Below, one piece after another: positions 14,964 through 16,424 of a DNA stretch of 64,000 nt. The notes beneath the pieces are model-generated. The model was not told the DNA's origin, did no database searches, and worked only from the letters and a program-made list of their open reading frames with translations. Both the position numbers and the translations under genes were made by a program. Within the stretch, counting starts at the first letter, position 1. Every line of letters starts with the position of its first letter. The stretch is from a virus. The stretch spans positions 1 to 64,000 of IMG/VR virus record IMGVR_UViG_3300045988_123515; one strand, given 5' to 3'.

Positions 14964-16424
14964 ATGGATTTTTCAAATGCAATGAAAGAAGAAAGCAAGT
15001 TTACAAAAACTGAAAATGGCGCAGTCGCACTGAACACTACAAGCGATGCAAGGCTTGATCTATTCGGAACTATTGGAGCATTAAGAGATGCTGATGAGAA
15101 TAGAATCACTACATTGTTCTCAGAAGCGTATGCACAGGATAAACTCTTTGCAACAAAGATAATTTTCTATGCAAGAGATATTCGTTACGGACTTGGAGAA
15201 AGAAAAACTTTCCGAACCATTATTCGCTATATGGCAGAGCATCATCCAGAAGCACTCAGACCGAACCTTGATTTGGTTGGAGTATTTGGAAGATACGATG
15301 ATCTCTATGAATTGATTGGAACTCCATTGGAAGATGATATGTGGAAGACCATGAAAAATCAGTTCGAGGAAGATTTGAAGAATCTTAATGAGGACAAAAC
15401 AATTTCTCTGCTTGCTAAATGGATTAAAACTGCTGATGCAAGTAGTGCAAAGACTAGAAAATTAGGAATTCTGACTGCACAAAAGTTAGGATATCCAGTT
15501 TACAACTTTAAGAGAATCGTTCGCAGCATGAGAAAACAGATAGGTGTTGTCGAAAGTCTTATGTCTGCCGGTAAGTGGAACGAGATTAAATATCCAGAAG
15601 TTCCAAGCCGTGCAATGATGATTTATCGTAGAGCCTTTGCAAAGCATGATTCAGATGGATTCAGCGAATTTATCAATAAAGCTGATAAAGGAGAAGTTAA
15701 AATCAATGCTTCAACCTTGTATCCATACGACATCGTAGAAAAAATCCTTTATGGAAGAGAAAATAACAAAGTTCTTGAAGCACAGTGGAAAGCATTTCCA
15801 GATTATGTTGAGCAGAGAACAAATGCACTGATAATGGCTGATGTATCTGGTTCAATGTCTTGGAATGGTGGCAGACCGCTAGCCACTGCAATAGGATTGG
15901 CGATTTACTTTGCAGAAAGAAATGTTGGAGCATATCATAATCTGTTTATGACATTCTCTAGCAAGCCACAGATCGTCGCATTAAAGGGCGAAACGCTTCA
16001 CCAGAAAATAATCAATGTTGCAAAAGCAAATTGGGGTGGTAGCACAAACCTTAAAGCTGCATTTGAGAAAGTACTTGATATTGCTGAAGAGAACAACGTT
16101 TCACAAGAAGAGATGCCGAAAGCTATAGTTATTATCTCTGATATGGAAATTGATTACTGCGGGAATAAGGACTGGACTTTCTATGACAAAATGGCAAACA
16201 AATTCCAAAAAGCTGGATACATCATTCCGAATGTTATCTTCTGGAATGTCAACAGCAGACATGATGTGTTCCATGCAGATGCTACAAGAAAAGGTGTGCA
16301 GCTTGCAAGCGGTCAGTCGGTAACAGTATTCAAACAGGTATTACAGAACCTTGGATACAATCCGATTGAGGCTATGGAAAACACAATCAATTCAGAGAGA
16401 TACGATTGTATCACTGTTGAATGA
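14964..16424 (+). CDS. DUF2828-like helical domain + von Willebrand A domain protein (Ro60/Rsr-like architecture)
   Basis: The N-terminal TENGAVALNTTSDARLDLFGTIGALR..FYARDIRYGLGERKTFR matches my recollection of DUF2828. The C-terminal half has the MIDAS motif D-V-S-G-S (LIMADVSGSMS, about 15840-15857) and IVIISDME. Confidence 0.7.
   Translation: MDFSNAMKEESKFTKTENGAVALNTTSDARLDLFGTIGALRDADENRITTLFSEAYAQDKLFATKIIFYARDIRYGLGERKTFRTIIRYMAEHHPEALRPNLDLVGVFGRYDDLYELIGTPLEDDMWKTMKNQFEEDLKNLNEDKTISLLAKWIKTADASSAKTRKLGILTAQKLGYPVYNFKRIVRSMRKQIGVVESLMSAGKWNEIKYPEVPSRAMMIYRRAFAKHDSDGFSEFINKADKGEVKINASTLYPYDIVEKILYGRENNKVLEAQWKAFPDYVEQRTNALIMADVSGSMSWNGGRPLATAIGLAIYFAERNVGAYHNLFMTFSSKPQIVALKGETLHQKIINVAKANWGGSTNLKAAFEKVLDIAEENNVSQEEMPKAIVIISDMEIDYCGNKDWTFYDKMANKFQKAGYIIPNVIFWNVNSRHDVFHADATRKGVQLASGQSVTVFKQVLQNLGYNPIEAMENTINSERYDCITVE

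Follow-up and report, generated by a model that had tools for sequence, protein, structure and literature searches.

A phage DUF2828 protein with a predicted Ro60-like fold and the helix–ACAGCAA small RNAs encoded beside its gene

Ro60/Rsr proteins and their Y RNAs—exemplified by bacterial Rsr with YrlA or YrlB, Rsr from Deinococcus radiodurans with Yrn1, Ro60 from phage phiLo with Yrl1 and Yrl2, and mycobacteriophage Ro with YrlA—represent the closest known systems to the locus described here. YrlA RNAs were found beside Ro60 genes in a search limited to genomes with TROVE-annotated proteins, and Rsr–YrlA pairs lie on the same strand, at most 4 kb apart (Chen et al. 2014, PMC4201824). The TROVE-type Ro60 of phage phiLo binds two neighbouring Y-like RNAs (PMC12135203). 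The present locus belongs to a stretch of 64,000 nucleotides of viral DNA (positions 1 to 64,000 of the IMG/VR record IMGVR_UViG_3300045988_123515, hereafter the window), where an open reading frame (ORF) at 14964..16424 on the plus strand starts with ATG and encodes a protein of 486 residues, inside an array of presumably co-transcribed small RNAs. This protein and a family of RNAs that share a terminal helix followed by ACAGCAA probably constitute a divergent branch of the Ro60/Y-RNA type of ribonucleoprotein (RNP), in which the copy of the RNA module held in the leader of the gene would serve autoregulation.

The protein holds an N-terminal DUF2828 domain (PF11443; E 5.6e-42, 144.5 bits, cut-off 29) and a C-terminal von Willebrand factor A (vWA) domain, recognized by Pfam as DUF7788 (PF25043; E 8.6e-41, 140.1 bits, cut-off 27.1) and as VWA_2 (E 1.4e-6). 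The five residues of the MIDAS (metal ion-dependent adhesion site), D293-x-S295-x-S297, T361, and D393, show no variation in an alignment of 85 diverse homologues with 37–57% identity. Both the DUF2828 assignment and the intact MIDAS claimed in a preliminary description of this DNA are thereby confirmed. Several basic or aromatic residues of the N-terminal half are likewise invariant in this alignment, and the many conserved ones of the N-terminal domain include R41, R71, R74, R80, R110, K152, W153, and R190. Residues 1–481 match PHROG 850, “RNA-binding protein” (E 2.5e-139, 466 bits). Homologues are present in 710 phage records, where they are labelled “Ro-like RNA binding protein”, “RNA-binding protein”, or DUF2828, and which include Felix-O1-like, Listeria, Enterococcus, Staphylococcus, Bacillus, Mycobacterium, Campylobacter, Vibrio, and other phages, while a library of 1.84 billion proteins yields 6659 cluster representatives of the family at E≤0.001. 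The Ro60-like reading of this family is already known from PHROG 850, from the SEA-PHAGES label “Ro-like RNA binding protein”, and from a recent preprint (PMC11482910). The Pfam entries for DUF2828 and DUF7788 and the PHROG 850 entry hold no experimentally supported function and no mention of associated RNAs, and the literature searched contains mentions of DUF2828, none of them on function.

The relationship to Ro60 is seen at the level of the predicted fold. An AlphaFold2 model based on the 85-sequence alignment (predicted local distance difference test score 95, predicted template-modelling score 0.93) is entirely helical in its N-terminal half and alpha/beta in its C-terminal half. The ten best Foldseek matches in the PDB are all Ro60, Rsr, or phage Ro60 structures, aligned over about 500–570 columns with E values from 8.7e-8 to 3e-5 and template-modelling (TM) scores of 0.46–0.63. 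Among them are Ro60 from the Thermus phage phiLo (9kop, E 8.7e-8, and 9l5y), Rsr from D. radiodurans (2nvo, E 6e-6), and Ro60 structures from Xenopus and humans (1yvr, 1yvp, 2i91, 9nfa, 9nep, and 9nf8), with 1yvr at E 2.3e-7 and TM 0.62. The PDB matches ranked below them are isolated vWA domains, so that full-length matches are confined to Ro60/Rsr. A comparison with predicted viral structures ranks other DUF2828/DUF7788 proteins, from phages and giant viruses, first and also retrieves a TROVE-annotated protein from a crAss-like phage (E 1.8e-8). The structure search against Ro60/TROVE proposed in the preliminary description, which would have counted the lack of any relationship between the N-terminal domain and TROVE/Ro60 as a refutation, did not refute the idea, since Ro60/TROVE structures head the matches of the predicted model. 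Because the top PDB matches are of the Ro60 type, the Ro60 analogy is supported at the predicted-fold level, and the model argues for the protein being a phage-borne, divergent representative of the Ro60/Rsr structural class, with a ring of alpha-helical repeats followed by a vWA/MIDAS domain.

Like the Y RNAs of Ro60/Rsr, candidate partner RNAs of the DUF2828 protein are found on the strand of the gene, within a few kb. They carry a module formed by a terminal helix (S) of 6–7 bp, followed by 1–3 nt and a single-stranded ACAGCAA. In most cases, GAC/GUC lies close to the base of the helix, and (U)G follows its 3′ strand. The 5′ strand (S5, e.g., GGGACAC) pairs with a segment located 35–70 nt downstream (S3, e.g., GUGUCC), which is followed by UG. 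Both strands covary among lineages, as in GGACGC/GCGUCC, GUGACCC/GGGUCA, GUGAUGC/GCAUCA, AGACCAA/UUGGUCU, AGGAAUC/GAUUCCU, and UGAGCGC/GCGCUCA, among others. Over 870 kb, ACAGCAA occurs 280 times on the strand of the gene versus about 70 times on the opposite one. With a relaxed motif, a stemmed module lies no more than 1 kb from the gene in 48 of 49 lineages, at a density of 1.36/kb within 1 kb versus 0.14/kb at 5–10 kb. Each of the eight cultured phage lineages examined, namely Escherichia phage wV8, Listeria phage VEfB7, Enterococcus phage EFDG1, Staphylococcus phage S-CoN_Ph12, Bacillus phage Nate, Mycobacterium phage Wamburgrxpress, Campylobacter phage PC14, and Vibrio phage nt-1, also has the module next to the gene. 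These units correspond to no family in Rfam 15 and to no description in the literature searched, and the helix–ACAGCAA family, with its three architectures, appears to be new.

The genes for these proteins are also linked to tRNA arrays. Among 80 IMG/VR loci coding for relatives with 39–93% identity, 563 of the 568 tRNAs called by ARAGORN lie on the same strand as the gene, and their density drops roughly 8-fold with distance from it (1.05/kb inside the first 250 bp, 0.13/kb at 5–10 kb). The gene heads or ends a tRNA array in wV8, VEfB7, EFDG1, PC14, and Nate. Together with the proximity of the module, these counts bear out the co-occurrence of DUF2828–vWA genes with tRNA-like RNAs in other phage genomes that the preliminary description had proposed to test.

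The window contains three copies of the module, upstream of the gene and on its strand. The first is embedded in a long tRNA-like RNA (14681..14801). The second is a stand-alone RNA (unit 1, 14806..14864), with S5 at 14806–14813, a single U, ACAGCAA at 14815–14821, a payload, S3 at 14856–14863, and a final G. Its payload is the hairpin CAUAAU-UUGA-AUUAUG, a shrunken mimic of an anticodon arm that reads CAUAA-CUGCUAA-UUAUG in relatives. The third is the leader module (unit 2, 14873..14950), which occupies the 5′ untranslated region (UTR) of the gene and consists of S5 GGGACAC (14873–14879), UU, ACAGCAA (14882–14888), an AT-rich payload, S3 GUGUCCU (14943–14949), and G. The only match over a unit in an Rfam scan at E≤10, that of this region (14874–14950) to the Dictyostelium class I RNA, was rejected as being at chance level (E 0.13). 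The core TACAGCAA, which the preliminary description had placed three times between the upstream tRNA mimic and the start codon, does recur at 14740, 14814, and 14881, with the first copy lying inside the tRNA-like RNA itself. The whole window holds seven occurrences versus 2.7 expected, three of them within 150 nt. A role for TACAGCAA as a promoter −35 element was considered and rejected, given that only the third copy stands in a consensus-like context and that promoter-like sites number 7 versus 9.2 expected. Since such sites are not enriched and the motif is conserved across phages of unrelated hosts, TACAGCAA is treated as an RNA feature.

The payloads carried by these modules resemble parts of tRNAs far more often than expected. 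Among 97 unique short units, 34 contain a perfect hairpin of 5 bp and 7 nt with U33 and R37, versus 3.5 expected, with loops that are mainly CUUUUAA (Lys-UUU type, 8), CUGUUAA (Asn-GUU, 5), CUGCUAA (Ser-GCU, 4), and CUGCAAA (Cys-GCA, 4). A hairpin resembling the T arm (GGUUCRANUCC) is found in 22 of 145 units. In EFDG1 and Wamburgrxpress, the payload is a permuted tRNA-like domain with the order T arm, capped acceptor stem, and D arm. This is the order of YrlA, and relatives match the Rfam YrlA family (RF02553), always below the gathering score of 69 (44.9, 39.8, and 34.2 bits, E 7e-7 to 9e-4, and also 28.4 bits). The alignment with YrlA spans only the tRNA-like domain, leaving the terminal helix and ACAGCAA outside, and the terminal stems are mismatched. 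The permuted order is not seen in the window, whose module RNA at 14681–14801 has the normal order with open acceptor ends.

Compared with Y RNAs, the module RNAs share a terminal helix with a conserved 5′-proximal motif and a tRNA-mimicking part. Unlike in Y RNAs, the Ro-binding motif GGUCCGA / GNCGAAN0-1G (PMC4201824) was not found when looked for, and the 5′-proximal motif is ACAGCAA after a GAC/GUC-based helix. The payloads also differ from those of Y RNAs in including bare anticodon-stem-loop mimics and, uniquely, whole non-permuted tRNA bodies with the module grafted into their anticodon stem. Another difference is that one copy of the module is regularly the leader of the gene itself.

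The architecture with a whole tRNA body is exemplified by the RNA at 14681..14801, in which the acceptor stem, D arm, and T arm are all complete. It matches the Rfam tRNA family with 46.1 bits and an insertion of 47–58 nt in the anticodon arm. The module (approximately 14710–14756) sits in the 5′ strand of the anticodon stem, with its hairpin at 14721–14738 and ACAGCAA at 14741–14747, and is followed by the anticodon-like loop AUUACAA (14759–14765). The split anticodon stem GUA..CC/GGUAC pairs at five of five positions. The intron mode of ARAGORN interprets 14681–14800 as a tRNA-Glu(UUC) that has a long variable arm and is interrupted by a 42-nt intron. This interpretation was rejected in favour of the split stem and the loop AUUACAA because, unlike the ARAGORN pairing, the split stem is kept by two compensatory changes in the related locus L007 (AUG..CC/GGCAU). 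No Rfam family was matched that would make the insert a self-cleaving ribozyme or another curated motif.

Relatives of this RNA are frequent. A generic tRNA covariance model built from related loci retrieved many matches of 113–131 nt near the gene in widely diverged loci, from which a specific model, R2, was derived; the RNA of the window scores 110 bits with it. The long members have in common a complete tRNA body, an A-rich linker, a hairpin of 5–7 bp with a loop beginning with UG, ACAGCAAU 1–3 nt after this hairpin, and then an anticodon-like loop. Across 20 diverse members, 98.3% of the cells are paired, and compensatory changes occur in 19 of 24 pairs, among them each of the five in the insertion hairpin and the two outer ones of the anticodon stem; none of 500 shuffles was as good, and slid controls reached 38–47% pairing. 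With up to 10 kb searched on each side, R2 finds 53 long members in 50 non-redundant sources, frequently as tandems of two to four, all of them on the strand of the gene and at most 3.6 kb from it, and most starting within 1 kb. Their hairpin is the helix of the stand-alone units with a circularly permuted connectivity (S3-UG-loop-S5-NN-ACAGCAA).

These tRNA-embedded members could be read as true tRNA genes with a new type of small intron of about 38–57 nt, which would be recognized by its helix–ACAGCAA element and for whose splicing or maturation the Ro60-like protein would be a cofactor. This reading stays alive because conceptual removal of the insert restores a 5-bp anticodon stem in 32 of 52 members, many of them with canonical loops that have U33 and R37 (such as CUGGUAA, CUUGUAA, CUUUUAA, or AUUACAA). 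It would also agree with an insertion point that slides from position 26 to position 32, and with different tRNA bodies of one phage that share the same insert in up to four tandem copies. An intron would not explain, however, the stand-alone units without exons, nor the members with non-canonical 9-nt loops or with no anticodon-like loop. Moreover, neither an endonuclease nor a ligase is a constant neighbour (a putative tRNA ligase was seen in the Listeria phage only), and the circular permutation of the helix relative to the stand-alone units fits a transplanted binding platform at least as well. An intron is, on balance, distinctly unlikely.

A copy of the module also regularly precedes the gene that it accompanies. 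It lies no more than 250 nt upstream of the start codon in 29 of 45 non-redundant lineages, and 27 of these 29 leader motifs have a perfect 6-bp closing helix, versus 3.4 expected from shuffles. When all IMG/VR contigs were scanned for the leader pattern GGACNCNNACAGCAA-N25-55-GNGTCCTG, at least 119 stretches were found, and 72 of the 79 fetched contain a homologue of the protein (24–93% identity), which almost always starts 14–185 nt downstream on the same strand. In the window, unit 2 ends 1 nt ahead of the ribosome-binding site AAAGGAG (14951–14957), and in Vibrio phage nt-1, the leader helix GACAUU/AAUGUC encloses both the ribosome-binding site and the start codon.

This position is also what would be expected if the helix–ACAGCAA elements were cis-acting signals of the operon—attenuators or thermometers, RNase sites, or punctuation—rather than ligands, with the protein acting elsewhere and the co-location reflecting shared transcription. 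The 5′ UTR nearly always holds one copy, which adjoins or encloses the ribosome-binding site or the start codon; the units follow one another head-to-tail in the spaces between tRNAs, as would be expected of processing spacers; and a promoter-like hexamer pair (CTTACA-17-TAAAAT) overlaps the third copy of the window, within the payload of unit 2. Yet the motif is kept across phages of Firmicutes, Actinobacteria, Gammaproteobacteria, and Epsilonproteobacteria, whose RNases and promoters differ, and it is present with no tRNA within 3.5 kb in Wamburgrxpress (locus L202), which has three module RNAs. Purely cis-acting signals would account neither for tRNA-mimic payloads far above chance nor for the copies embedded in tRNA bodies, and autoregulatory operators typically mimic the real RNA target of their protein. 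This explanation is regarded as unlikely.

The preferred reading, an RNP of the Ro60/Y-RNA type, suggests the following mechanism. The protein is expected to recognize the platform formed by the helix and ACAGCAA, which would play the part of the bulged stem with GGUCCGA / GNCGAA on the Y RNAs for Ro60/Rsr. This platform carries an anticodon-stem-loop mimic, a T-arm mimic, or a circularly permuted tRNA-like domain as in YrlA, or, alternatively, is itself grafted into the anticodon stem of a whole tRNA body, as at 14681–14801 of the window. Once the free platform RNAs are saturated, the protein would most likely bind the leader copy and repress its own translation, a feedback suggested by the position of that copy at the ribosome-binding site. 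During infection, the RNPs probably act on tRNA-directed processes, either as decoys or baits that engage host nucleases or anticodon-loop-reading enzymes, or, as Y RNAs do, by tethering the ring protein to enzymes for tRNA handling, RNA decay, or repair (compare the Rsr–Y RNA–PNPase complex). Tethering to RNA-decay or repair enzymes would be the main alternative within the same framework. A decoy or bait role is favoured because anticodon-arm mimics are so prevalent and because the probable orthologue of the Felix-O1 type, discussed below, has a reported anti-defence phenotype.

Several phages are known to answer tRNA-targeting defences, as T4 does with Pnkp and Rnl1 against PrrC, and T5 with its tRNAs against PARIS and retron-Septu. 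Anticodon nucleases such as PrrC and colicin E5 attack tRNAs whose anticodons include Lys(UUU) and Asn(GUU). Like phage tRNA decoys, the module RNAs show anticodon stem-loops, including those of Lys(UUU) and Asn(GUU). Unlike them, they are mostly not full tRNAs but 50–80-nt RNAs with a helix and an anticodon-arm mimic, tied to a Ro60-like protein, and their decoy role is hypothetical. A broader and more tentative proposal, which is possible but rather doubtful as a whole, is that the helix–ACAGCAA RNAs are so far unrecognized and very widespread phage analogues of Y RNAs, dedicated to the DUF2828 branch. Their RNPs would display mimics of anticodon arms or whole tRNAs as decoys or baits against tRNA-directed immunity, the leader copy would provide feedback, and the tRNA-embedded form would be a new architecture in which the anticodon stem of a tRNA body bears an arm for protein binding, possibly a conditionally usable or spliced tRNA.

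A probable relative of the window protein is gp130 from phage Bas63, described in the 2024 PhageMaP preprint (PMC11482910) as Ro60-like by structure and located directly upstream of a tRNA array, some of whose “tRNAs” were guessed by the authors to be Y RNAs. Like gp130, gp047 from wV8, which is 33% identical to the window protein, heads a tRNA array, and the gene is full-length in 251 of 251 records matching the wV8 gene, most of them Felix-O1-like. Unlike the suggestion made for gp130, the candidate RNAs in wV8 are not annotated tRNAs but unannotated helix–ACAGCAA units between them. One unit of this phage (from approximately 8360; 8360–8480) holds a T arm, a capped acceptor-like stem, and a D arm, and is YrlA-like by eye, with no Rfam YrlA match at E≤1. 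Annotations of “tRNA-OTHER” pseudogenes are present in the same locus (L081) at 8042–8129, 9355–9425, and 12030–12105. In contrast to Bas63, a Felixounavirus, the phage of the window is not a Felix-O1-like myovirus but seems to be a temperate gut siphovirus. Its products include a serine integrase, an Ant anti-repressor, and a DnaD-like replication protein, besides a large terminase, a portal, and a major head protein, and its closest database record is an unannotated phage contig from human faeces.

Several points weigh against the RNP reading, the strongest being that gp130 alone, expressed from a plasmid or inserted in T7, counters the Ppl defence (PMC11482910). Since gp130 alone suffices, the anti-Ppl activity, at least, needs no phage-encoded RNA, which speaks against an obligatory RNP. 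The relevance of gp130 depends in turn on its probable orthology, which is deduced from synteny and from the published description, a spread sample of 60 of the 251 records having contained no Bas63. Regarding the protein, its N-terminal domain is not TROVE by sequence: TROVE is absent from its Pfam scan at E≤1, and neither phmmer nor a profile of the 85 homologues reaches Ro60 among PDB sequences. The Ro60/Rsr layout advanced in the preliminary description therefore stands as a predicted fold, with a TM score of about 0.6, and not as a relationship detectable by sequence. Regarding the RNAs, the Infernal-type scan suggested there for Y RNA and YrlA came out negative, with no Rfam match to YrlA (RF02553) or Y_RNA (RF00019) in 13000–17200 at E≤10. 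Binding of the module by the protein is what we infer from co-location and the analogy with Ro60, the leader copy could act as a regulatory structure solely in cis, and the canonical anticodon loops of many tRNA-embedded copies fit an intron better than a protein-binding arm.

The experiment with gp130 also invites a protein-only explanation, according to which the protein is chiefly an inhibitor that binds proteins of host defence through its vWA/MIDAS domain, while its position in tRNA arrays is a by-product of the gathering of accessory genes there and it binds no dedicated RNA. The rescue of T7 by gp130 and the status of vWA/MIDAS domains as classic protein–protein interaction modules, also seen in the vWA-only structure matches, agree with it. 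It nevertheless leaves unexplained the near-universal, strand-specific, and covarying RNA module beside the gene, the full-length Ro60 fold including the helical ring, and the YrlA-like neighbours. Anti-defence and RNA roles are, moreover, not mutually exclusive, and this explanation is considered highly improbable. The phage-borne RNP module of the preliminary description thus receives computational support from the predicted fold and from the cross-genome association with the RNAs, and the protein would be expected to bind them.

Two further aberrant RNAs lie downstream of the gene. The first (16476..16544) has normal acceptor, D, and T arms and is called “Cys(aca)” by ARAGORN, with 47 bits for Rfam tRNA and 55.8 bits for the model R1, and is also supported by the alignment of relatives. 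Its anticodon arm is cut to a 3-bp stem with the loop UACAAAA, and it lacks the ACAGCAA module. In close relatives (L004–L013 and L031), the same body bears UGU, UGA, or UCA anticodons, the UCA form being UGA-suppressor-like and called “SeC(tca)” by ARAGORN. A trailer hairpin (16546..16568) with the stem UCCGGUG/CACUGGA and the loop AAUUGCUAG follows it. The stem covaries in relatives, where the loop reads AAYUGCNA, and the hairpin moves with the tRNA body as a cassette in L003 and L033. The second RNA (16608..16660) is a mini tRNA-like RNA with an acceptor-like stem, a 4-bp hairpin with a GUUGG loop, and a T arm (UUCAAGU), followed by a run of U (16661–16665). It has neither anticodon arm nor ACAGCAA module and is matched by neither Rfam nor ARAGORN. 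It has a fold z-score of −2.28 and occurs in close relatives in only two sequence types, which differ by about 5–6 compensatory pair changes over all three helices.

The preliminary description had reported three aberrant tRNA-like RNAs flanking the gene. All three prove to be real, 14681–14800 and 16476–16544 by exceeding the gathering score of Rfam tRNA (RF00005), and 16608–16660 by its fold and its relatives; the module is present only in 14681–14800. None of them shows the standard cloverleaf with a 5-bp anticodon stem and a 7-nt loop. The two downstream RNAs may be bystanders or decaying tRNAs of a fast-evolving array, in which identical tRNA bodies bear differing anticodons among relatives with at least 89% identity. 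The RNAs at 14681–14801 and 16476–16544 are preceded, at 14625–14676 and 16440–16473 (+), by a shared conserved leader composed of TCAACYCA, a hairpin, and GRCCGTNANAGGCGG, which may be a common promoter or processing element.

Upstream of these, four tRNA genes had been counted, three of which are solid: tRNA-Gln(UUG) (13526..13599, +; ARAGORN, Rfam tRNA 52 bits), the first gene of the co-oriented array and followed by a terminator-like hairpin at 13598–13629 in a terminator scan; tRNA-Met(CAU) (13821..13892, +; ARAGORN, 68.7 bits); and tRNA-Arg(CCU) (14449..14520, +; ARAGORN, 47.6 bits, and the alignment of relatives). The body of the latter bears CCU (Arg) in the window, L005, and L006, and CAU (Met) in L001, L004, L008, L010, and L031, whose neighbouring protein is at least 89% identical, which represents an anticodon switch on a conserved body. 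The fourth is a borderline, decayed tRNA-Tyr(GUA)-like element (14204..14286, +; 29.3 bits, gathering score 29), called as Tyr(gta) by ARAGORN in relatives and not in the window. Its degenerate T loop has mutated to GUGCAAC, whereas L003 and L033 retain GGUUCGACUCC, so that it is apparently a decaying tRNA gene.

Other features of the window and of related loci were also observed. After the RNA array, a small Cys-rich ORF of 53 residues (16683–16844, +) has homologues in L007 and L009 that are interrupted in frame by TGA and TAG, respectively, where other relatives have sense codons. These stops could reflect decay or stop-codon recoding, and L007 also has a tRNA with a UCA anticodon. The Rfam int-alpA RNA (RF02996; 51.4 bits, gathering score 35.8) is matched at 43353–43422 (+), between an ORF of 2155 residues (36735–43202) and the next gene. 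In the Listeria phage (vB_Lino_VEfB7, L200), positions 1957–2508, which separate the tRNA array from the three ACAGCAA units located upstream of the DUF2828 gene, match the ROOL RNA (RF03087) with 87.4 bits and E 2.7e-16, just short of the gathering score (99.1). The “putative tRNA ligase” of this phage is encoded 1.3 kb downstream of the same gene. In L202, a gene for a band-7-like membrane protein (1694–2572) lies about 0.9 kb upstream of the Ro-like gene.

Ro60–Y RNA particles have long been studied and their function is still puzzling, and the DUF2828 branch is a common one—present in Felix-O1-like phages, P100/A511-like phages, Schiekvirus, KVP40-like phages, Fletchervirus, and many gut phages—whose members are named “RNA-binding” from remote similarity. 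The searchable RNA signature described here gives this family candidate partner RNAs, together with specific nucleotides and a leader for experiments, and offers candidate RNAs for the anti-defence gene of a Felix-O1-like phage. Beside the gene, elements annotated as “pseudo-tRNAs” or miscalled by ARAGORN, as well as gaps with no annotation, can be reinterpreted as module RNAs, and the most frequently mimicked loops, those of Lys(UUU), Asn(GUU), Ser(GCU), and Cys(GCA), point to host activities that may be countered or exploited. If this reading is true, the same logic might indicate RNA partners for the uncharacterized DUF2828 proteins of plants and other eukaryotes.

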